A DNA stretch of 64,000 nucleotides, taken from Ranitomeya imitator (taxonomy: Eukaryota). This document shows, in pieces, positions 8,818 to 58,033 of the stretch. The position numbers and the translations under genes are program-made. Position 1 is the stretch's first letter, and every line of letters starts with the position of its first letter. Below the pieces are notes generated by a model. The model was given only the letters and a program-made list of their open reading frames with translations. It did no database searches and was not told the origin of the DNA. The DNA is taken from NCBI RefSeq assembly GCF_032444005.1, contig NC_091283.1, forward strand, positions 307,272,001-307,336,000. The letters run 5' to 3'.

Positions 8818-8975
8818 TTAGGGTTAGGGTTAGGGCTAGGGTTAGGGTTAGGGTTTGTATTACATTTACGGTTGGGATTAGGGTTGGGATTAGAATTAGG
8901 GGTGTGTCAGGGTTAGGTGTGTGGTTAGGGTTACAGTTGGGATTAGGGTTAGGGGTGCGTTTGGATTAGGGTTTC
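8818..8975 (+). repeat. Interstitial telomere-like (TTAGGG)n tract, degenerating rightward
   Basis: 8818-8853 is TTAGGG x3, CTAGGG, TTAGGG x2; GGGATTAGGG-type variants follow. Confidence 0.85.
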
Positions 8976-8989
8976 AGTTATAATTGGGG

Positions 8990-11250
8990 GTTTCCACTGT
9001 TTAGACACATCAGGGGCTCTCCAAACGCGACATGGCGTCCGATCTCAATTCCAGCCAATTCTGCATTGAAAAAGTAAAACAGTGCTCCTTCACTTCCGAG
9101 CTCTCCCGTGCGCCCAAACAGGGGTTTACCCCAACATATGGGGTATCATCGTACTCGAGACAAATTGGACAACAACTTTTTGGGTCCAAGTTCTCTTGTT
9201 ATCCTTGGGAAAATAAAAATTTGGGGGGCTAAAAATCATTTTTGTGGGAAAAAAAAGGATTTTTTATTTTCACGGCTCTGCGTTGTAAACTGTAGTGAAA
9301 CACTTGGGGGTTCAAAGTTTTCACAACACATCTAGATAAGTTCCATGGGAGGTCTAGTTTCAATATGGGGTCACTTGTGGGTGGTTTCTACTGTTTGGGT
9401 ACATCAGGGGCTCTGCAAATGCAACGTGACGCCTGCAGACCAATCCATCTAAGTCTGCATTCCAAATGGCGCTCCTTCCCTTCCGAGCTCTGCCATGCGC
9501 CCAAACAGTGGTTCCCCCCCACATACGGGGTATCAGCGTACTCAGGACAAATTGAACAACAACTTTTGGGGTCCAATTTATTCTGTTACCCTTGTAAAAA
9601 TACAAAGCTGGGGGCTAAAAAATCATTTTTGTGAAAAAAAAAAGAATTTTTATTTTCACGGCTCTGCGTTATAAACTGTAGTGAAACACTTAGGGGTTCA
9701 AAGTTCTCACAACACATCTAGATAAGTTCCTTGGGAGGTCTAGTTTCTAATATGGGGTCACTTGTGGGGGGTTTGTACTGTTTGGGTACATCAGGGGCTC
9801 TGCAAATGCAACGTGACTCCTGCAGACCAATCCATCTAAGTCTGCATTCCAATTGGCGCTCCTTCCCTTCCGAGCTCTGCCATGCGCCCAAACAGTGGTT
9901 CCCCCCCACATATGGGGTATCAGCGTACTCAGGACAAATTGGACAACAACTTTTGGGGTCCAATTTATTATGTTACCCTTGTGAAAATACAAAACTGGGG
10001 GCTAAAAAATAATTTTTGCGAAAAAAAAAAAAAATTATTTTAACGGCTCTGCGTTATAAACTGTAGTGAAACATTTGGGGGTTCAAAGCTCTCAAAACAC
10101 ATCTAGATAAGTTCCTTATGGGGTCTAGTTTCCAAAATGGTGTCACTTGTGGGGGGTTTTAATGTTTAGGCACATCAGGGGCTCTCCAAACCAACATGGC
10201 GTCCCAACTTAATTCCAGTCAATTTTGCATTGAAAAGTCAAATGGCGCTCCTTCCCTTCCGAGCTCTGCTATGCACCCAAAAAGTGGTTTACCCCCACAT
10301 ATGGGGTATCGTCGCACTCAGGACAAATTGCACAACAACTTTTGTGGTCTAATTTCTTCTCTTACCCTTGGGAAAATAAAAAATTGGGGGCGAAAAGATC
10401 ATTTTTGTGAAAAAATAAGATTTTTTATTTTTACGGCTCTGCATTATAAACTTCTCTGAAGCACTTGTTGGGTCAAAGTGCTCACCACACATCTAGATAA
10501 GTTCCTTAAGGGGTCTACTTTTCAAAATGGTGTCACTTGTGAGGGGTTCCAATGTTTAGGCACATCAGGGGCTCTCCAAACGCAACATGGCGTCCCATCT
10601 CAATTCCAGTCAATTTTGCATTGAAAAGTCAAATGGCGCTCCTTCCCTTCCGAGCTCTGCCATACGCCCAAACAATGGTTTACACCCATATATGGGGTAT
10701 CAGCGTACTCAGGACAAATTGGCCAACAATTTTTGAGGTCCAATTTCTTCTCTTACTCTTGGGAAAATAAAAAATTGGGGGCGAAAAGATCATTTTTGTG
10801 AAAAAATATGATTTTTTATTTTTACGGCTCTGCATTATAAACTTCTGTGAAGCAATTGGTGGGTCAAAGTGGTCACCACACATCTAGATAAGTTCCTTAG
10901 GGTGTCTACTTTCCAAAATGGTGTCACTTGTGGGGGGGTTTCAATGTTTAGGCACATCAGTGGCTCTCCAAACGCAACATGGTGTCCCATCTCAATTCCT
11001 GTCAATTTTGCATTTAAAAGTCAAATGGCGCTCCTTCCCTTCCGAGCTCTGCCATGCGCCCAAACAGTGGTTTACTCCCACATATGGGCTATCAGCGTAC
11101 TCAGTACAGATTGTACAACAATGTTTGGCATCCATTTTATCCTGTTACCCTTGGTAAAATAAAACAAATTGGAGCTGAAATAAATTTTGTGTGAAAAAAA
11201 AGTTAAATATTCATTCTTATTTAAACATTCCAAAAATTCCTGTGAAACCC
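8990..11250. repeat. Tandem array, ~385-391 bp unit, ~6 copies, internal to the piggyBac-like element
   Basis: TCTAGATAAGTTCC anchor at 9331, 9717, 10102, 10492 and 10883. Confidence 0.9.
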
Positions 11251-14394: not shown

Positions 14395-14432
14395 TTAAGA
14401 AAATACAATTTCCGTTTAAAACATTTCCAACA

Positions 14433-16633
14433 TTAAGAAGGTGAAAAAGGCTTTTCCCCTGTGTGAATTCTCTGGTGCTTAAGCAAATCTGATTTCTGGT
14501 TAAAACATTTCCCACATTCTGAGCATGAAAAAGGCTTCTCCCCTGTGTGGGTTCTCTGGTGGTGAACAAGAACCGATTTCCGGATAAAACATTTCCCACA
14601 TTCTGAACAGGAGAAAGGTTTCTCCCCTGTATGAATTCTCTGGTGCTTAAGCAAATCTGATTTCTGGTTAAAACATTTCTCACATTCTGAGCATGAAAAA
14701 GGCTTCTCCCCTGTGTGGGTTCTCTGGTGGTGATCAAGAACCGATTTTCGGTTAAAACATTTCCCACATTCTGAACAGGAAAAAGGCTTCTCCCCTGTGT
14801 GAATTCTCTGGTGCTTAAGCAAATCTGATTTATGGCTAAAACATTTCCCACATTTTGAACAGGAAAAAGGCTTCTCCCCTGTGTGAATTCTCTGGTGCTT
14901 AAGCAAATCTGATTTCTGGCTAAAACATTTCCCACATTCTGAGCATGAAAAAGGCTTCTCCCCTGTGTGGGTTCTCTGGTGGTGAGAAAGATGCGCTTTC
15001 TCGTTAAAACATTTCCCACATTCTGAACAGGAAAAAGGCTTCTCCCCTGTGTGGGTTCTCTGGTGGTGATCAAGAACCGATTTCCGGATAAAACATTTCC
15101 CACATTCTGAACATGAAAAAGGCTTGTCCCCTGTGTGGGTTCTCTGGTGGTGAACAAGATGCGCTTTCTCGTTAAAACATTTTCCACATTCTGAACATGA
15201 AAAAGGCTTCTCCCCTGTGTGAATTCTCTGATGCTTAAGCAAACCTGATTTCTGGTTAAAACATTTCCCACATTCTGAACATGAAAAAGGCTTCTCCCCT
15301 GTGTGGGTTCTCTGGTGGTGATCAAGATGCGCTTTCTGGGTAAAACATTTCCCACATTCTGAACAGGAAAAAGGCTTATCCCCTGTGTGGGTTCTCTGGT
15401 GCTTAAGCAAATCTGAATTCTGGTTAAAACATTTCCCACATTCTGAACAGGAAAAAGATTTCTCCCCTGTGTGAATTCTCTGGTGGTGATCAAGAACCGA
15501 TTTTCGGTTAAAACATTTACCACATTCTGAACAGGAAAAAGGCTTCTCCCCTGTGTGACTTCTCTGGTGCGTAAGCAAATCTGATTTCTGGTTAAAACAT
15601 TTCCCACATTCTGAACAGGAAAAAGGTTTCTCCCCTGTGTGAATTCTCTGGTGGTAATCAAGAACTGATTTTCGGTTAAAGCATTTCCCACATTCTAAAC
15701 AGGAAAATGGTTTCTCCCCTGTGTGAATTCTCTGGTGGTGATCAAGAACCGATTTTCGGTTAAAACATTTCCCACATTCTGAACAGGAAAAAGGCTTCTC
15801 CCCTGTGTGACTTCTCTGGTGCGTAAGCAAATATGATTTCTGGTTAAAACATTTCCCACATTCTGAACAGGAAAAAGGTTTCTCCCCTGTGTGAATTCTC
15901 TGGTGGTAATCAAGAACTGATTTTCGGTTAAAGCATTTCCCACATTCTGAACAGGAAAAAGGTTTCTCCCCTGTGTGAATTCTCTGGTGGTAATCAAGAA
16001 CCGATTTTCGGTTAAAACATTTCCCACATTCTGAACAGGAAAAAGGCTTCTCCCCTGTGTGAATTCTCTGGTGCTTAAGCAAATCTGATTTCTGGCTAAA
16101 ACATTTCCCACATTCTGAACATGATAAAGGCTTCTTCCCTGTGTGAATTCTCTGGTGCTTAAGCAAATCTGATTTCTGGCTAAAACATTTCCCACATTCT
16201 GAACATGAAAAAGGCTTCTCCCCTGTGTGGGTTCTTTGGTGTATAACAAAATCTGATTTGTGGTTAAAACATTTCCCACATTTTGAACAAGAACATCTGT
16301 TCTCTGCTGTGTGAATTGTTTTATGTTTAAGAAAATGCTTTTCAAGGGGAAAGCTATTTCCATATTCGGAAGGTGAAAACGGCTTCTTTGATTTAGGAGC
16401 AATTCGTTTCTTAATGCTTATTTTGTGACTTTGATTTTCCTTAGTAGTTGGTAAGGAATCAGAAGACAGGACCCATTTCAAAGGATCAGATGAGAGATCT
16501 TTGCTGTGAAGGCATGATGGTATATCTGGCGTAATGACATTCACTTCAATTGTATCCCGTGTGATCTCAAGATCATGTGATTTAAAAATTGAAGATGACA
16601 GCTGCCCCTCTGATCTCCTGGTACAGTAATCTG
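14433..16633 (-). CDS. C2H2 zinc-finger gene, terminal coding exon (spacer, 22 intact fingers and one degenerate finger)
   Basis: Open frame with 22 CxxC...HxxxH units joined by TGEKPF linkers; acceptor ttattcttag|CAGAT (NAGNAG) in phase 1, matching the upstream exon. Confidence 0.95.
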
Positions 16634-41110: not shown

Positions 41111-41134
41111 GAGGGGTTTACAGTGTGGATGTAG

Positions 41135-41420
41135 CAGAGCCGTGTGTGTACAAGGTGTACGGAGCGGAGCCATGTGTGTACGGGGTGTACGTAGCGGAGC
41201 CGTGTGTGTACGAGGTGTACGGAGTAGAGCCGTGTGTGTACGGGGTGTATGGAGCAGAGCCGTGTGTGTACAAGGTGTACGGAGCGGAGCCATGTGTGTA
41301 CGGGGTGTACGTAGCGGAGCCGTGTGTGTACGAGGTGTACGGAGTAGAGCCGTGTGTGTACGGGGTGTACGTAGCGGAGCCATGTGTGTACGGGGTGTAT
41401 GGAGCAGAGCCGTGTGTGTT
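41135..41420. repeat. 30-bp CpG-rich minisatellite (left part)
   Basis: GTGTGTGTACGAGGTGTACGGAGCAGAGCC variants; continues after the provirus. Confidence 0.95.
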
Positions 41421-42001
41421 TGTTAGAAAAAGTAACCGTTCCTTATTTTTTCAAGTAATACGGTGAGAATAGGAAAGATAAGCAAAATTGAATTGTGTGG
41501 ATAAAACAAGTCTTATTTAATGTCCATTCAAAAAGTGATTACAAAAATGAAGAAAAAGTAAGTTTATCAGTTCATAGCACACAAATCAAGTATTAGATTA
41601 TAAGAGAAAAATTAAGCATAGGTCTTACGTATGTCTTTGAGGCATGATGTGGTCCATGTGGAGAGTTCTCAAGGAATGAGAAAGTCTGCCCCCTACTGGT
41701 GCTGGGTCTACCCTTATATACTCTTTTGACCCATAGACTTCCATTGGTTACTATCTTTTCCTACCTCCTAGCCACATAAGGTGATCTACCTGGTGCTATA
41801 TCCATAGCTCATACCATATTAGCAAAACCTAGTAATTTGCAAACATACATTGGCTCTTTACATTACTTCATGGTACATCCTAAATATAATTTGCTTTGGT
41901 TACGGGTAACCTAAGCAATCCACATATAGATACAGTTTGACAACTCCACTCATTAGTTTTGACATACAAACAACAGATGCGAAAGCCAAGGTCTTCAGGA
42001 T

Positions 42002-42328
42002 CAAGATAAGTGAAAGCAGTCACAGGGGAGCGCAGAGGAATAGACCCAGGGAAGGGGAGATGAAAGGGAGTTGTCGAGCACCACTGCAGCTCCAGCTGAA
42101 TACCTCCAAGGGAGGATAAGAATGCGTGTCAAACAGAAATCAGTCCCAGGAGCGCTGAAGGAAACTCAGACAACATATGTCGTTTGCCACAACGCGTTTC
42201 AACGGTAAACACCGTCTTCTTCAGGTGGGAGAAGAAGACGGTGTTTACCATTGAAACGCGTTGTGGCAAACGACATATGTTGTCTGAGTTTCCTTCAGCG
42301 CTCCTAGGACTGATTTCTGTTTGACACG
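42002..42328 (-). mobile_element. Short Penelope-like fold-back insertion
   Basis: 15-bp TSD CAAGGTCTTCAGGAT at 41987-42001 and 42329-42343; ~100-bp inverted arms at 42123-42222 and 42231-42330; absent from the 5' LTR. Confidence 0.8.
42187..42228 (-). ncRNA. Minimal type I hammerhead ribozyme
   Basis: CCAC-CTGAAGA-A-GACGGT GTTT ACCGTT-GAAAC-GC-GTT-GTGG: 4-bp stem I (CCAC/GTGG), stem II hairpin, AACGCGTT palindromic stem III, GUU cleavage triplet. Confidence 0.7.
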
Positions 42329-42592
42329 CAAGGTCTTCAGGATAGCTGACACACACACTAGAGTTCAGAGCTACTGTTCAATAATTGATCGTTGCATTAT
42401 TATTTTATTATTTTTATTATATTATTGTTTTACATTCCCCCCTGATTATGATTTGAGAAATATCATAATCAATCCTAAACTCTTTCTCTCACCATTCGTA
42501 TCACATTCATTCTTTATTCTGAAAACCTTGTATCAACATCTGTTTTGAATGTCATCTAAATTTTGGAGACTAAAATCAAATTAAATCAAAGA

Positions 42593-43305
42593 TTATATTT
42601 TTCTTTTTAGCATTTCTCTCAAAATATCATCCTCCTTTTTCATTTCTATCTTTATCTTTTTGTAAATATTTTTAATTTTACACATAATAACTATTTGATA
42701 TATGATACACAGCAAAACTATAATAAATATAATAACAATCGGATTAGATAATACATTTCCTGCTGCCATTTTCGCTGAAGACTGTGACCAACTATTTACT
42801 GATTTTCCTAAATTTCTCCACCAAGATGAGCCTAACATACTCGTTCATTCATGTTCAATATCATTTAGATTCCCTTGCTCATGTCTGAATACAATTTCAG
42901 CTTCTTTTAGCTGTTTTGTTAACAAATTTAACAAACCCTTGTCTTTCTTTATCTCATTTGTCCACATATTCCAAGGAAAATTATTAATTTGGGACAAATT
43001 GAACTGTATTGGAAGGATTTTTAGGTTTCTTGAACCTATTGACGTAATATTAATACTTCCTTCCTTCTTTGAGAGAGTTTTCACATTTCCCTCAATACAA
43101 TATAAACCTATTGTCAGACTTTCAGCATGTACACAAGATGAAAAGAATGCAGAAACAGCTTCTTTTTCTGACATAACTTGGAAACAAATCTTATTAGCGC
43201 TTACTGGTGTCACCAAGTCATGGATCGTGTGTACATTCTCAACTCTGGCATGACATGAGGTATGATTATGGAAACATGAATGGTATATGACTTTGTCCTG
43301 TCCAG
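42593..43305 (-). pseudogene. env C-terminal remnant (Cys-rich ectodomain piece, heptad-like segment, TM helix, basic tail) with one in-frame TGA at 42845
   Basis: ORFs 42845-43309 and 42593-42838 are in the same frame (DIEHE*TSMLGSSWW); hydrophobic PIVIIFIIVLLCIIYQIVIMC; lies directly upstream of the PPT. Confidence 0.7.
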
Positions 43306-46300
43306 GCAATTCTGGATTTTATTGTTCTATTCATCCTTTCCACAATACCAGCAGACTGTGGATGGTAGGGTACATGGAACTGTTGTTGTACCCCTAGAAT
43401 AGTACAAACGGCTTGCATGATTTTTCCTGTAAAGTGACTTCCTCTATCGGAGGAGATCATTCTTGGGATCCCCCAAGTACAAAAGACATGGTTAACTAAT
43501 GCTCTAGCTGTAGACAAAGCATCATCTTTTCTGACAGGTAAAATTTCAACCCATTTAGAAAAAAACATCTACTACCACCAATGCATACCTGAGACCATTT
43601 TTACCTGATGGTAGCGGACCAATGTAGTCAATTTGTAGTGTAGACCATGGACCATCTGCAGGTGCGGTTCGGAGTAGTGGCGGTTTCTGTCCTTTTGGTC
43701 TTGGATTAATTTGGGCACAAATGAGACATGATTGGACAACACCTTGTACTGTCTCTTCCATCTTTTCCCAGTAAAATTTTTCTCTGAGAATGTCTAACAA
43801 TTTTTGCTGGCCCAAATGACCCAAGCTTTCATGATTATATTTTGTGAACTCGGCCTGTAGATGTTTTGGTACAACAGGACGCAACTCCCCATTTAAGTCA
43901 TGACACAAAACACCGTTTTCACAAACAAAGGGAGGTTTTGGATCAACCCGGGAAGCAACAAGAGATTTGTCTTTTTCTTGTTCTTCCGCAAAAGAAGGGA
44001 TATGCGTGTCTGTTCTTTGAACTGCTCTAACCTCGAGAAGTTCGGATTGAAACACTTCTTCTCCTGTCAGGGCTGCCTCTTTGGCTAACCTATCTGCGGT
44101 GGCATTTCCAACGGATAATTCGTCATCAGATTTTTTATGGGCAGGAACTTTAACAATAGCAAAACCATTAGGGGTTTTTGATGCTATCACAAAGATTGTT
44201 TTCAGTGTGTCACTATGTACAAGAGTCTTATTGGAAGAATCTACATAGCCTCTTTTCTCCCAAACTGGCAGATAATCTGTCAGTGACCTAACAACATAGG
44301 AGCTATCACTGTGGATTACAATGGGACACTGATCATCAGCTTCATTCAGCTGTAGCACCATTTTTACTGCTTCTAGCTCTGCCCTTTGAGCTGAAAAATG
44401 ACTTGGTAATTTGTGTTTTACAACCTGTTCTCTTTTGGGATAAAAAATGACATATCCTGAATAGTAGTGTCCATCTGCATAGAATCTGGAACCATCCACA
44501 AAAATTGGTACATCTGTTGCTTCTGCCTCTGAAAAGCGATGGACTAGGATCCTGAAAAGACTGTAAACAATCATGAGTTTGTCCTTCATATTGCATCAAC
44601 TGAGGAAGAACATATTTGGCCTTATAATCTACCTCAATTTGTTTGGGAGACAATGACAATAACCAATGAGCAAATCTCTGATGTGACACACCTGGGATAT
44701 TATTCTCAAAGAAAAGTTTTAGTGTAGAATGGGGAGTTTGCAAAGTGATTTTGTTGAACCCAACAATGTGTTCAGTTGCTTTGACTGCAAAGTACACACC
44801 AACCAGGTGTCTTGCACATGTCTCAAAACCTCTTTCAACAGGTGAGAGAAGCTTAGAAAAGTAGCCCAAAATTCTCCACTCTTCTCCCTGCAACTGTAGC
44901 AGCACAGCAGATACAGAAGTCTCTGATGTGTGCAATTGCAAAGCAAATGGCGCGGAAGGATCTACTGTGGACAAAGCAGGTGCAGTTTGTAAATTCATTT
45001 TCAATTGTTCAAATGAGGTTTGTTGTTCATCACCCCAGGGACCAAAGTAATCACTATTTTCACCTTTTAGAAGATCGTACAAAGGCCTGGCCTTGTCTGC
45101 AAAATTTTCAATGAAGTCCCTTGAAAAGTTTATAAGACCCAAAAAATGTCTCAATGCCTTGTGTGATGTTGGAACTGGTAGAGAAGCAATTGCCTCTATT
45201 CTTTCCTGCAGTGGCTGTCTTTTTCCTGGACTCAACAACACTCCTAAAAATCTGACCTCAGTCTGCATCAATTTGACCTTTTTAGTGTTTAATTTCAACC
45301 CTGCATCATGCAGCAGCTCAAACAATTCTTTCAGAAGTGAAACATGTGACTCTTTGTCCTCAGTAGACAATAGGATATCATCCACATACTGCAAAATACA
45401 ATCAGGCCTCGAAAATTTAGATAATACCTTTGCCAATGCCTGATGGAACACACTGGGTGACAAATGCGCCCCTTGAGGTAGCCTGCAGAACAAATATTGC
45501 TCATCCAAGAAGGTAAATGCAAACTTATACTGACAACTCTTTTCAAGAGGTATGCTGAAAAAACCATTACTGATGTCTAGTACAGAGAAATATTTTGCTT
45601 TTGCATTCAGCCTTGCCATCATATCATGAGTATCTGCAACAATGGGTGCTACATTGGGAGTATGTTTATTAAACATCCGCAAATCCAATATCATTCGATA
45701 AGAACCATCAGATTTTAAGACACACCACAAAGGATTGTTACTGACAGAATTAGCCTTTCGGATGACACCTTGTTTTAACAATTCCTGTATGATCTCTGAC
45801 ATAGACTCAATTGATTCTGGAGGCAATTTATACTGACGCTGAGGGGGTGGATCCTTTCCCTCGACATTTACAACAACATTTTTCATCAAACCCACTTCAT
45901 TCCTGAACTGAGCCCAAAGAGAAGGCAAAAGCTGTACAATTTCTGTCAATACCTCATCACCACCAGTTTCAGGCCACAGGTGTTCTGCTGACACAACATC
46001 ATTTAAGCAAATACTTCCAACATGGCTATAATCAATAGGATCAATAACTACAAGTTTACAACCATTAGAATCTTTCCAGATCACTTGATTCCCTAGATCA
46101 ACAACCCATCCAAATTTCTGCATAAAATCTGTGCCAAGTATATTTTCAGAATCACGACAATACCAAATGTCAATTGTTGTTTTGAAAGAACTAGGTATTT
46201 CCAATGTCACATCCGTAACTAAGGTTGCTTTAGTTCCACCTTTTTCACTAAAACCAACAATTGTACAAACTGGTGAATCTGGTTGTAACTTCAAATCAAG

Positions 46301-46450
46301 ATTTGTTACGCTTAATTGGGCTCCTGTATCAATCAAAAATACAACAGTCTGTCCTGCTAGATTTACCTTGATAAAAGGTCTCCCACAATTATCTAATGTC
46401 ACTCGAGCCACAAATTCCAATGGATGAGGTGTAGGAATTGTCTGTGATTG
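43305..46450 (-). pseudogene. Retroviral-type pro-pol: protease, RT, degenerate RNase H (tether), active RNase H and integrase; two frameshifts, integrase C-terminus deleted
   Basis: FLIDTGAQ and ILGTDF; LPQG..SP and YVDD; tether lacking catalytic acids (QLHTS, RHL, TPHS); FVDGS, AELEA, HSDS, NATAD; HHCC, IDYIGP, SSDRG, IVERMN. Frameshifts near 44550 and at the A-run near 43560. Confidence 0.92.
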
Positions 46451-48010
46451 TCAGAAAGATGGAGGAGACGGGAGAAGTCCAATGTCCTTTTTAAAAGCAC
46501 TTGGAGTTCTATTTCTGGCCTCAGTCTCCTTCACGGTCATCTCTCTGATCTGTCTGATTAATGGTGCATACGGTGACTGCGTTTGTCTGTTGTCAGTGTG
46601 AGTGGGTGCATTTGATTGTAATGGAGGTGCAGAAGGCCTAGTGGATAGTTTTGGCATGAGTCCGTTTTCCCTTCCAAGTTTTTCTGTCCCTTGTGTACCT
46701 GTCTCTGATTCTGCTCTCAGGAATTTTCTGCACTGCCACTTTAAGTGTCCAGGTATACCACAGAAATAACAATGGATATTGTTCCTTTGTGTAGTATTTT
46801 TACCTCTATGATCTACATAATCTCTGCTCTGGAAGGTTACTGTAGGTCTAGGTTTCAACTGGCTATCTTCTTTCTCATGAACTACCGCTATTTTTGCCTT
46901 CACCTGATTTTGTTTCATGGATCTCCTTACTCTGTCGATAAAAACTGTTGCTTTTTGTAATGATGGCTGAGCACTAGCCATTTGCTCTGAGGCAGGATCC
47001 AAATATTTGAACTTTTTTACAAAAAATCTGATCATGGATGTTGGCTCCTGATTAGGCCCAATTTCCATCACCATTCTATAGGCCTGCTCAAATTTTACCA
47101 AAAATGCAAATGGATCCTCATTAATATTGGTACAAAGTGATTCCAATATTTCAGCTGTCGGGGTAGATTCTCCCGTAAAGAATAAATTTAATTGCCTAAG
47201 TCTGTCTTCTCTTGTACTATGAATCTGCTCATGCTCCTAATTCAATCTGGGTGTGGTCTGTAATCTTTTTCCCATATGTGAGGGTAACCATACTTTGAAT
47301 ATTTTATTTTTTTGTTCATCATTAAGATTGTATTTGTCTGTATTTGATTAAAAAATGTCTGCATTATAAAAGGCATCCATCTTGTCATTGAAGTTTGGAA
47401 TGTCTTTTACAATTTTCATTAACTGATCGTGTATTTTCAGATTAATGCGTGCTGCTCTGTCATGGAATTTTTTCCGTTGTAATTCTTCTGCCTGAATATC
47501 TACTGACTCATCCAAATCTTGTGTATCAGGGACAAATGATACAGCGGCATTGTCTTCATGTTGGCCTGATCGTGTAAGAACAGAAGCCTTCTTTATATCT
47601 TGTCTCAATTTGGACAATAATTCTGTTCGAACATCAATCTGATCTTCCAATTGTTCAATATGTTCTGACAATATTAAACAATTTGGACAATCAAAGTAAT
47701 CCTTGTCAGATTCGTGTGTGTCACCTTGTGTATCAGTATGACCAGTGTCTTGTGTGACAGTACATATCTCATGTGTCTGTGTGTCAGTTTTCTCAAAAAC
47801 TAAATTATTGTATACTCGGACCATATGCATGACATTTTGAAGCTTCCTTTGTAACTTTTTTACTGAAAAAAACTTTTTATCAATTTTAAGATTCTCTGTT
47901 TCACATTGACTATACAAACTAGACCATAATTGTGAATCTGTATAGCTATGAACAAACAAACTGTATATTACTTTTCTTAGAATATTCATGAATAAAATCC
48001 ATTTTCTCAC
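46451..48010 (-). pseudogene. gag (frameshifted between 47348 and 47146) with a CCHC zinc knuckle
   Basis: CYFCGIPGHLKWQC; position between the 5' leader and pol; ends with TGA in frame with pol. Confidence 0.85.
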
Positions 48011-48286
48011 CTAAGGATTTTCTTTTTCCTCCTGGAATGATCCGACCGTCAATGGATGGTCCTCTGTGTCTTTTCACTGATCTTCCGTCTGGATGAGTCG
48101 TGCAGCTTTCTGAAGACACGAATGCTCACTCCTCTGTAGGCCCTTCTGACTCTTGTGACGTGATATAGTGGAATTTCTGCGCCTTGAACAACAGGTGTTT
48201 AGCAAACCTCCCTTCCCCCCTGTACAAGGGGTGGAATTCCACACAAAAGCACAAAAAAATCAGATCTGGCTTAAGGCTTGCCAAAA

Positions 48287-48955
48287 TGTTAGAAAAAGTA
48301 ACCGTTCCTTATTTTTTCAAGTAATACGGTGAGAGTAGGAAAGATAAGCAAAATTGAATTGTGTGGATAAAACAAGTCTTATTTAATGTCCATTCAAAAA
48401 GTGATTACAAAAATGAAGAAAAAGTAAGTTTATCAGTTCATAGCACACAAATCAAGTATTAGATTATAAGAGAAAAATTAAGCATAGGTCTTACGTATGT
48501 CTTTGAGGCATGATGTGGTCCATGTGGAGAGTTCTCAAGGAATGAGAAAGTCTGCCCCCTACTGGTGCTGGGTCTACCCTTATATACTCTTTTGACCCAT
48601 AGACTTCCATTGGTTACTATCTTTTCCTACCTCCTAGCCACATAAGGTGATCTACCTGGTACTATATCCATAGCTTATACCATATTAGCAAAACCTAGTA
48701 ATTTGCAAACATACATTGGCTCTTTACATTACTTCATGGTACATCCTAAATATAATTTGCTTTGGTTACGGGTAACCTAAGCAATCCACATATAGATACA
48801 GTTTGACAACCCCACTCATTAGTTTTGACATACAAACAACAGATGCGAAAGCCAAGGTCTTCAGGATAGCTGACACACACACTAGAGTTCAGAGCTACTG
48901 TTCAATAATTGATCGTTGCATTATTTTATTATTTTTATTATATTATTATTTTACA
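48287..48955 (-). repeat. 5' LTR (669 bp)
   Basis: TGTTAGAAAAAG...ATTTTACA; followed on the minus strand by TTT-TGGCAAGCC at the expected PBS position. Confidence 0.95.
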
Positions 48956-49280
48956 GTGTTCAAGGTGTACGGAGTGGAGCCGTGTGTGTACGAGGTGTAT
49001 AGAGTGGAGCCGTGTGTACAATGTGTACGGAGCGGAGCCGTGTGTGTACAAGGTGTACGGAGCGGCGCCTTGTGTGTATGAGGTGTACGAAGCAGAGCCG
49101 TGTGTGTACGAGGTGTACGGAGCAGAGCCGTGTGTACGAGGTGGATGGAGCAGAGCAATGTGTGTACGAGGTGGACGGAGTGGAGCCGCATGTGTACGAG
49201 GTGTATGGATTGGAGCCATGTGTGTACGAGGTGGATGGACCAGAGCATTTTGTGTACGAGGTGTAAGGAGCGGAGCCGTG
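48956..49280. repeat. 30-bp minisatellite (right part, more diverged)
   Basis: Same GTGTGTACGAGGTGTACGGAGC unit as 41135-41420. Confidence 0.9.
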
Positions 49281-56124: not shown

Positions 56125-58033
56125 CCCCTTTACCCCAATGGTGGTTTGCACGTTAATGACCAAGCCAATTTTTACAATTCTGACCACTGTCCCTTTATGA
56201 GGTTATAACTCTGGAACACTTCAACGGATCCCGTTGATTCTGACAATATTTTCTCGTGACATATTGTACTTCTTGATAGTGGTAAAATTTCTTTGATATT
56301 ACCTGCGTTTATTTGTGAAAAAAAAAAACGGAAATTTGGCGAAAATTTTGAAAATTTCGCAATTTTCCAACTTTTAATTTTTATGCAATTAAATCACAGA
56401 GATATGTCACACAAAATACATAATAAATAACATTTCCCACATATCTAATTTACATTAGCACAATTTTGGAACCAAAATTTATTTTTGTTAGGGAGTTAAC
56501 GGTTAAAAGCTGACCAGCAATTTCTCATTTTTACAACACCATTTTTTTAGGGACCAAATCTCATTTAAAGTCATTTTTAGGGGTCTATATGATAGAAAAT
56601 ACCCAAGTGTGACACCATTCTAAAAACTGCACCCCTCCAGGTGCTCAAAACCACATTCAAGAAGTTTATTAACCCTTCAGGTGTTTCACAGGAATTTTTG
56701 GAATGTTTAAATAAAAATGAACATTGAACATTTAACTTTTTTTTTCACAAAAAATTTATTTCAGCTCCAATTTGTTTTATTTTACCGAGGGTAACAGGAG
56801 AAAATGGACCCCAAAAGTTGTTGTACAATTTGTCCTGAGTACGCTGATACCCCATATGTGGGGTAAACCACTGTTTGGGCGCAAGGGAAAGCTCGGAAGG
56901 GAAGGAGCGCCATTTGACTTTTCAATGCAAAATTTACAGGAATTTAGATGGGACGCCATGTTGCGTTTGGAGAGCCACTGATGTGCCTAAACATTGAAAC
57001 CCCCCACAAGTGACACCATTTTGGAAAGTAGACCACCTAAGGAACTTATCTAGATGTGTGGTGAGTACTTTGACCCACCAAGTGCTTCACAGAAGTTTAT
57101 AATGCAGAGCCATAAAAATAAAAAATCATATTTTTTTACAAAAATGATCTTTTTGCCCCCAATTTTTTATTTTCCCAAGAGTAAGAGAAGAAATTGGATG
57201 CCAAAAGTTGTTGTACAATTTGTACTGAGTACGCTGATACCCCATATGTGGGGGTAAACCACTGTTTGGGCGCATGGCAGAGCTCGGAAGGGAAGGAGCG
57301 CCATTTGACTTTTCAATGCAAAATTGACTGGAATTGAGATGGGACACCATGTTGCGTTTGGAGAGCCATTGATGTGCCTAAACATTGAAAGCCACCACAT
57401 GTGACACCATTTTGGAAAGTAGACCCCCTAAGGAACTCATCTAGATGTGTTGTGAGAGCTTTGAACCCCCAAGTGTTTCACTACAGTTTATAACGCAGAG
57501 CCGTGAAAATAAGAAAACAATTTCGCACAAAAATTATTTTTTAGCCCCCCGATTTGTATTTTCCCAAGGGTAGCAGGAGAAATTGGACCCCAAAAGTTGG
57601 TGTCCAATTTGTCCTGAGTACGCTAATATCCCATACGTGGGGGGAACCACCGTTTGGGCGCATGGGAGAGCTTGGAAGGGAAGGAGCGTCATTTGGAATG
57701 CAGACTTAGATGGAATGGTCTGCAGGCGTCACATTGCGTTTGCAGAGCCCCTAATGTACCTAAACAGTAGAAACCCCAAACAAGTGACCCCATAATGGAA
57801 ACTAGACCCCCCAAGGAACTTATCTAGATGTGTTGTGAGAACTTTGAACCCCCAAGTGTTTCACTACAGTTTATAATGCAGAGCCGTGAAAAAAAAAATC
57901 CTTTTTTTTCCACAAAAATTATTATTTAGCCCCAGTTTTGTATTTTCCCAAGAGTAACAGGAGAAATTGGACACCAAAAGTTGTTGTCCAATGTGTCCTG
58001 AGTACGCTGATACCCCATATGTTGGGGTAAACC
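56125..58033 (-). mobile_element. Truncated right end of the same piggyBac-like family as 6986-11807, opposite orientation
   Basis: TTAA (56121-56124)-CCCCTTTACCCC, then the reverse complement of 11807 back into the ~388-bp array (~3 units, ~56770-58033). Confidence 0.9.

Follow-up and report, generated by a model that had tools for sequence, protein, structure and literature searches.

The 64,000-nucleotide stretch of the Ranitomeya imitator genome analyzed here (the window) contains, on the minus strand at positions 41421-48955, a defective provirus, probably of a frog endogenous retrovirus (ERV) family that combines a reverse transcriptase (RT) in the snakehead retrovirus (SnRV)/class III grade of the canonical retroviruses with an envelope protein (Env) that is probably F-like and bears an immunoglobulin (Ig) domain. 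The genes run in the order gag, protease, RT, tether, RNase H and integrase, followed by an env remnant, and the layout is retroviral: long terminal repeat (LTR), primer-binding site, gag, pro, pol, env, polypurine tract and LTR, with a short target-site duplication. An initial annotation had described a young, nearly complete provirus of lokiretrovirus-like architecture; its youth is confirmed by the analysis, its completeness and its affiliation are not.

The provirus and its sibling copies

The features of the window copy are as follows.

41416-41420, unstranded: target-site duplication GTGTT, left copy
41421-42434, minus: 3' LTR, split by a later insertion (alignment to 5' LTR)
41987-42328, unstranded: dispersed repeat inside the 3' LTR, 342 bp, with 15-bp LTR duplication, 100-bp palindrome and hammerhead-like core
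42435-42449, minus: polypurine tract (identical 15-mer in the window and 5 of 5 two-LTR siblings)
42593-43304, minus: env remnant, Env residues 646-882 of 882, one premature stop (sibling comparison)
43304-43305, unstranded: breakpoint of a 2,452-bp deletion (comparison with full-length sibling)
43305-43872, minus: integrase, HHCC zinc domain and core, frameshifted and truncated (Pfam, sibling comparison)
44071-44514, minus: RNase H, four acidic motifs intact (Pfam, motifs)
44648-45037, minus: tether, a degenerate RNase H (Pfam, motifs)
45041-45868, minus: reverse transcriptase with LPQG and YVDD (Pfam, RT tree)
46109-46381, minus: aspartic protease with DTG (Pfam, motif)
46451-46453, minus: in-frame TGA between gag and pol, then CAATCA (7 of 7 copies examined)
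46454-48002, minus: gag, one CCHC knuckle (46724-46774), one frameshift, two premature stops, 5' end approximate
48266-48283, minus: primer-binding site, tRNA-Arg(ACG) type, imperfect
48287-48955, minus: 5' LTR, 669 bp (LTR alignment)
48956-48960, unstranded: target-site duplication GTGTT, right copy

Pfam matches occur in the order zf-CCHC (weak, E 0.015), RVP, RVT_1 (5e-34), RT_RNaseH_2/RT_RNaseH at the tether and RNase_H (2e-22), and the integrase gives Integrase_H2C2 (7e-16) and rve (2e-10); Pol carries DTG, LPQG, YVDD and all four acidic motifs of RNase H. The CCHC gag, protease and RT named initially are all recovered in this way, as is the degenerate RNase H preceding an intact one, the tether having lost its first acidic position. 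The integrase that had been reported is present as zinc domain and core, but it is frameshifted and its C-terminus has been removed by the 2,452-bp deletion, which also takes Env residues 1-645 with the Ig domain, furin site and fusion peptide. What is left of env, its protein 96-97% identical to the C-terminal portion encoded by sibling open frames of 884 codons and thus the remnant it was held to be, retains the end of a beta region, the C-terminal helix, the transmembrane anchor and the tail, and has its premature stop at 42845-42847. Relative to a full-length sibling there are three frameshifts, near 43.56, 44.53 and 47.96 kb, and the premature stops in gag lie near 47.35 and 47.24 kb; the internal part is 97.5% identical to one full-length sibling, the LTR only ~93% identical to sibling LTRs. 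This copy has lost the Env head and can make no working Gag, Pol or Env, and "nearly complete" overstates its condition because the deletion, frameshifts and stops leave it dead. The deletion junction, 43304/43305, is bridged by no contig among those listed from public sequencing runs; contigs from 4 of 4 such runs have loose ends at 43305-43307 and run on into other sequence.

Both LTRs are of the form TG...CA, and their alignment gives 663 matches and 5 substitutions over 668 aligned positions plus one 3-bp indel. Together with GTGTT on each flank this agrees with the five or so LTR differences and 5-bp duplication noted by eye in the initial annotation, which omitted the indel and the 342-bp insert of the 3' LTR. 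The divergence of 0.75% corresponds to 3.7 million years (My) at an amphibian rate (as used in PMC12690878) or 1.7 My at a mammalian rate (as used in PMC7947760), with a Poisson range of 1.2-8.5 My at the slower rate. At roughly 2-4 My the provirus is young, yet older than the freshest siblings, and dead. Its insertion site is a 30-bp minisatellite, now halved by the provirus (41133-41419 and 48956-49280). The palindrome of the 342-bp insert is terminal, the hammerhead-like core reads CTGANGA...GAAA, and 40 of 40 scored candidates in the genome (best 40 of 988) match the insert at 97-100%; Rfam returned no hammerhead match for it, only hairpin-driven miRNA matches below gathering scores. We take the insert to resemble an inverted, truncated Penelope-like or retrozyme fragment.

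A genome search with the env remnant matched 150 of 150 scored candidates (best 150 of 216), and the siblings are the 10-kb stretches around the 14 best non-self env matches, a sample biased to well-preserved copies. Two full LTR matches are found in five of the 14, and four of these five are ~9.7 kb long. In two siblings the LTRs are identical and gag, pol and env are open over 558, 1212 and 884 codons; in a third ~9.7-kb copy pol is 28 codons shorter and there is one LTR substitution, a fourth has a stop in gag and six LTR substitutions, and the remaining siblings are broken or partial. No accessory open reading frame of at least 200 codons was found in the full-length siblings. Duplications of 5 bp are clear in three of the five two-LTR siblings, offset by one base in the fourth and mismatched in the fifth, and the family integrates with duplications of this length. 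The family has inserted very recently, because there are siblings with identical LTRs, so that the recent activity and intact relatives suspected initially have indeed been found by searching the genome for undeleted copies. The open env of the youngest copies suggests that the family may spread by reinfection.

Three further observations concern copies of the family. A 4.5-kb copy (L017:5339-9800) with near-identical LTRs and open env has lost gag-pol, which suggests mobilization in trans. Another locus (L024) is rearranged: both of its strands carry family sequence, and it gave no LTR match. By hand count ~120 of the best 150 env matches fall in one interval (G000:C2, about 238-390 Mb); these are mostly older broken copies with common stops, suggestive of segmental duplication inside a zinc-finger gene cluster.

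The primer-binding sites of the siblings match the 3' end of host tRNA-Arg(ACG) at 14 of 15 bases. A search for this tRNA end gave 8 pattern matches, and 0 in a reversed control, and all 4 of the loci that were scanned encode tRNA-Arg(ACG); complementarity thus shows tRNA-Arg(ACG) as the predicted primer from which reverse transcription of the family would start. SnRV reportedly uses an arginine-tRNA primer as well. The window site is an imperfect variant, found in the same form in two siblings. Two site variants occur in the family (window; L016, L017, L018, L020, L021), one with a three-base insertion relative to tRNA-Arg(ACG), and both are present in copies with identical or near-identical LTRs. 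Since gag and pol lie in one frame, parted by TGA and CAATCA in all seven copies examined, and CAATCA fits the read-through context CARYYA, we infer that Pol would be made by read-through of the single TGA behind gag.

The envelope protein

From its first methionine the sibling Env is 882 residues long (884-codon open frame), with a hydrophobic stretch near 33-57, RSKR at 432 followed by a glycine-rich hydrophobic peptide, and an anchor near 823-860. Of the motifs of gamma-type transmembrane subunits, neither CXXC nor an immunosuppressive domain (ISD) was found in it, and a CX6CC pattern is present near the N-terminus only. The search for relatives found 25 proteins. The nearest, 100% identical over the region, is labeled Ranitomeya imitator, in support of the amphibian host proposed initially. 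The other relatives, at 45-93%, are labeled Dendrobates, Phyllobates, Anomaloglossus, Leptodactylus, Dendropsophus, Mantella, Rana, Lithobates, Hyperolius and Xenopus. We take these labels to represent Dendrobatidae, Aromobatidae, Leptodactylidae, Hylidae, Mantellidae, Ranidae, Hyperoliidae and Pipidae, and on that footing the predicted 882-residue Env occurs in at least eight frog families. A profile search with 15 Envs, limited by its word index, returned 22 proteins, frog-labeled or unnamed, and no fish or virus protein. Three annotated frog proteins (P0060, P0061, P0042) join a piece of Env to KRAB/zinc-finger or ankyrin domains; these may be annotation chimaeras or exonised env.

Residues 248-356 of the modeled protein form a V-set Ig domain, as shown by fold. 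Pfam Ig_3 is matched by 14 of 15 members at E<=10 (best 1.5e-7), a PDB profile match has E 6e-5, and the AlphaFold model, with a predicted local distance difference test (pLDDT) score of 75-90, superimposes on a V domain with VIA Z 14.0 and a root-mean-square deviation of 1.9 over 96 residues. In the genome the domain gives 107 matches among 124 candidates. It is preceded by a confidently modeled N-terminal beta domain (95-245), for which no structure-atlas match was found. In comparison with non-dendrobatoid, non-leptodactylid frogs the beta and Ig regions diverge faster (24-45% identity) than the part behind them (51-64% identity), as expected of a surface head, and the two domains are likely a receptor-binding head.

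The long fusion subunit probably resembles the F protein of Mononegavirales. A search by ESM features with residues 360-860 put clusters of fusion glycoprotein F0 at the head of its list (0.94; 205 of 256 features in common), the top cluster being 88% PF00523 and 10 of 10 best matches belonging to one clan, in a measure where shuffled proteins reach 0.9 in 4-10 of 100. Foldseek with the model of these residues gave five matches at E<=0.001, four of them RNA-virus glycoproteins and two named F0, including that of respiratory syncytial virus (RSV). With the whole-Env model the named top matches were WEHV1 and WDSV Env (E 3e-8 and 4e-7), and the frog protein and epsilon Envs may belong to one type; the best BFVD match in both runs was A0A384ZVF2 (928 aa). 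Several results speak against an F-like fold. The model of residues 360-860 has a mean pLDDT of 40 and its Foldseek TM-scores are <=0.15; PF00523 is not among 25 of the 27 Pfam families listed for the 15 Env members; phmmer gave no match in PDB; and the post-Ig part has no VIA match at Z>=8, the best being Z 7.4 to helical bundles, and RSV F, in 33rd place, reaching a non-significant Z of 5.8 across 59 residues. Scanning the genome for PF00523 gave no match, but the controls were silent too, so this is uninformative. The resemblance to Mononegavirales fusion proteins put forward initially is thus moderately supported by ESM and Foldseek and not by Pfam, phmmer or VIA, and it is from the domain order taken together with weak similarity scores that we infer an F-like (class Ib) fusogen.

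Such an Env would be a type I membrane protein with a long leader, the N-terminal beta domain, the V-set Ig domain, a strand and helix and the furin site, behind which would come the fusion peptide, heptad helices, a cysteine-rich beta region, a second helix and the membrane anchor. Following cleavage at RSKR the F-like core would drive fusion, receptor binding falling to the N-terminal beta and Ig domains, a division of labor that accords with the modular organization described for class Ib fusogens (PMC11468914).

Placement of the polymerase and competing readings

Protein searches provided 171 RT-spanning rows, of which 40 were chosen and combined with the window in a careful LG+G4 tree of 41 rows; a second, quick mixture-model tree has 69 rows. 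Reference rows were labeled by short motifs matched to the supplement of PMC7947760 and not by name, except for WEHV1, giving one SnRV row (P0101), three loki rows (P0158, P0170 and P0186, two of them fish proteins by name) and Xen1 (P0163). The window RT is 63% and 61% identical to its nearest rows, one labeled Xenopus tropicalis, 44% to the SnRV-motif row, the best of the labeled references, and 37-40% to the loki-motif rows. In the 41-row tree it belongs to a six-row clade with support of 100/100 whose labeled members are Xenopus and Rana, and this clade lies on the retrovirus side (100/99), opposite loki plus Gypsy; the mixture-model tree gives the same split (SH-aLRT, an approximate likelihood-ratio support, 99). 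The window RT is outside the WEHV1/Xen1/gamma-motif clade (100/98) and outside all 8 Gypsy-type rows, so that the phylogeny called for initially has yielded a separate frog clade and no epsilon, gamma or Gypsy placement. Its motifs RLPQGAHLSP and LQYVDD are as in the SnRV entry, and an approximately unbiased (AU) test does not reject a clade of family and SnRV (p 0.30). A scan of viral contigs with Pol found no relative. Judged by sequence, the family RT lies among the canonical retroviruses and belongs, loosely, to their poorly resolved SnRV/class III grade.

A number of points weigh against this placement. Foamy (spuma), class II and Odin rows are absent from the RT tree and its loki rows are fish-type only, the retrovirus side begins as a polytomy, and sisterhood with SnRV is recovered in neither free RT tree. 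In addition, identity of the integrase core is higher to the loki row (58%) than to SnRV (37%), and that of the tether is a little higher to loki as well (29-33% vs 27%).

The integrase value also bears on a possible, if doubtful, recombinant origin, whereby a lineage with canonical-type RT would later have acquired its F-like env, and perhaps its integrase, with a lokiretrovirus or negative-strand RNA virus as the donor. Such a history concerns the origin of Env and is compatible with most of the explanation that we prefer; env swapping is described as frequent in amphibian ERVs, and frogs do harbor lokiretroviruses. However, in the integrase tree the SnRV, ERV-L-like and WEHV1 rows fall together with the family in one clade of 14 rows (98/97), away from the sole loki row, the Env layout is unlike that of the loki Envs examined (about 560-620 aa, cleavage site near the N-terminus), and three conserved Env motifs are absent from the searched part of the PMC7947760 supplement. 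The spread of Env over at least eight frog families means, moreover, that any swap is old.

A frog ERV of class I, epsilon-like and akin to Xen1/RMERV or ERV-Epsilon-Dti, would account for the WEHV1 and WDSV matches of the whole-Env model and for best solved-structure sequence matches to RTs of murine leukemia virus and foamy type; it is very unlikely given the position of the RT outside the clade with WEHV1 and Xen1, and ERV-Epsilon-Dti is described as having 495-bp LTRs and grouping with RMERV/Xen1. As prior descriptions of the family, ERV-Epsilon-Dti and AnERV1-10 were set aside by LTR length, clade or Env type as described.

We regard a true lokiretrovirus, the reading of the initial annotation, as highly improbable. 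The dual RNase H, the F-like Env subunit and the integrase core identity are all in its favor, but the tether plus RNase H that had been taken as a lineage marker is common to all retroviruses (PMC7947760) and so not diagnostic, and an F-like Env that occurs in a family with canonical RT is no loki marker. In the alignment part examined, 24 of 24 loki RTs have PFG/PFGY and a non-Q residue before the YVDD-type motif (PMC7947760); the loki motif (C/L/M/T)PFGY..NS is not matched by the window RT, both RT trees set the window apart from loki rows, and the AU test rejects a clade of family and loki (p 0.008, three fish-type loki-motif rows). There is also no SMC-like gene, an optional feature. A search of the genome with loki-motif RT reached 36-39% identity at best (best 150 of 151,754 candidates) and so supplied no loki reference, which is not proof of absence. 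Genome RT searches are dominated by a young, very high-copy Gypsy-like family (L034-L045) with open frames to ~1,540 codons. Finally, near relatives carry the database label 'Gypsy retrotransposon integrase-like', but an ordinary Ty3/Gypsy element with a captured open reading frame is hardly credible in view of the dual RNase H, the full Env with furin site and anchor, and the RT outside all Gypsy-type rows.

Known systems and the origin of retroviral env

The frog family, read as a canonical-RT lineage with an F-like, Ig-bearing Env, has partial counterparts among known systems. SnRV and clade Huo (PMC6001957, PMC4131045, PMC12193657) resemble it in the RLPQG-H-SP and LQYVDD motifs and the 44% RT identity, and SnRV-like ERVs are known in Xenopus and Pelophylax (PMC4131045); they differ in not being sister in free trees, in the accessory frames that the family lacks, and in an Env tail of 136 aa in SnRV (PMC12193657), which in the frog family is short. 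Lokiretroviruses or lokiorterviruses (PMC7947760, PMC9040795) have in common with it LTR-gag-pol-env, the tether plus RNase H, a probably F-like Env and a fairly similar integrase core; they differ in RT clade and motifs, and the frog Env, whose cleavage site is preceded by beta and Ig domains, exceeds theirs by ~300 residues. Foamy Env, a class Ib fusogen (PMC11468914), likewise has an F-like core, an added receptor-binding module and a long N-terminal leader, whereas the frog module is N-terminal to the F2-like part and includes the V-set Ig domain; the family Gag, furthermore, has a CCHC knuckle and is in frame with pol, and by eye the RT motif is not LPQGFLNSP. An IgV-fold surface domain proposed to bind receptor is found, as in the frog Env, in gamma-type RBD-C and Env-Dbi (bioRxiv 2024.03.17.585361), there on Envs of gamma/alpha type with CXXC, ISD and CX6CC, none of which is in the expected place in the frog protein. 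XtERV-S (PMC8278194) is, like the family, young and from a frog, and of class III, but has YIDD, dUTPase and a gamma-type Env, which the family does not. No description of an Ig-plus-F Env was found in the open-access literature searched, and the frog Env is not described in the examined parts of three amphibian surveys (bioRxiv 2024.07.05.601823, PMC12690878, bioRxiv 2021.11.23.469661).

Elsewhere in the window, a degenerate interstitial TTAGGG array and two ~390-bp tandem repeats occupy 8818-8973, 8986-11201 and 56740-58033, and an 84-bp tandem array on the minus strand at 14408-16293 codes for 22 C2H2 zinc fingers, placing a KRAB-ZNF-type gene near the provirus.

Taken alone, the window copy is a dead, ordinary remnant. 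Its family makes clear that 'dual RNase H plus F-like env' fails to identify a lokiretrovirus, and a lineage that pairs canonical RT with an F-like Env would add, on the source of retroviral env, a third data point beside the F-like Envs published for loki (PMC7947760, PMC9040795) and foamy viruses (PMC11468914); the young open copies across frogs are natural sequences for a structure-guided Env tree. More tentatively, the family may represent a hitherto undescribed pan-anuran lineage, branching close to the root of the non-foamy retroviruses, that has kept an ancestral F-type Env, as foamy and loki viruses would have, with a captured V-set Ig receptor head, that is still invading poison-frog germlines and that may circulate as virus. 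Wang and Han preferred independent env gains for canonical retroviruses and loki, their Envs looking unrelated; foamy Env has since been shown to have an F core (PMC11468914). If true, the ancestral reading would run counter to that published preference, and F-type Env would be ancestral to all retroviruses, with gamma- and beta-type Envs as later replacements.

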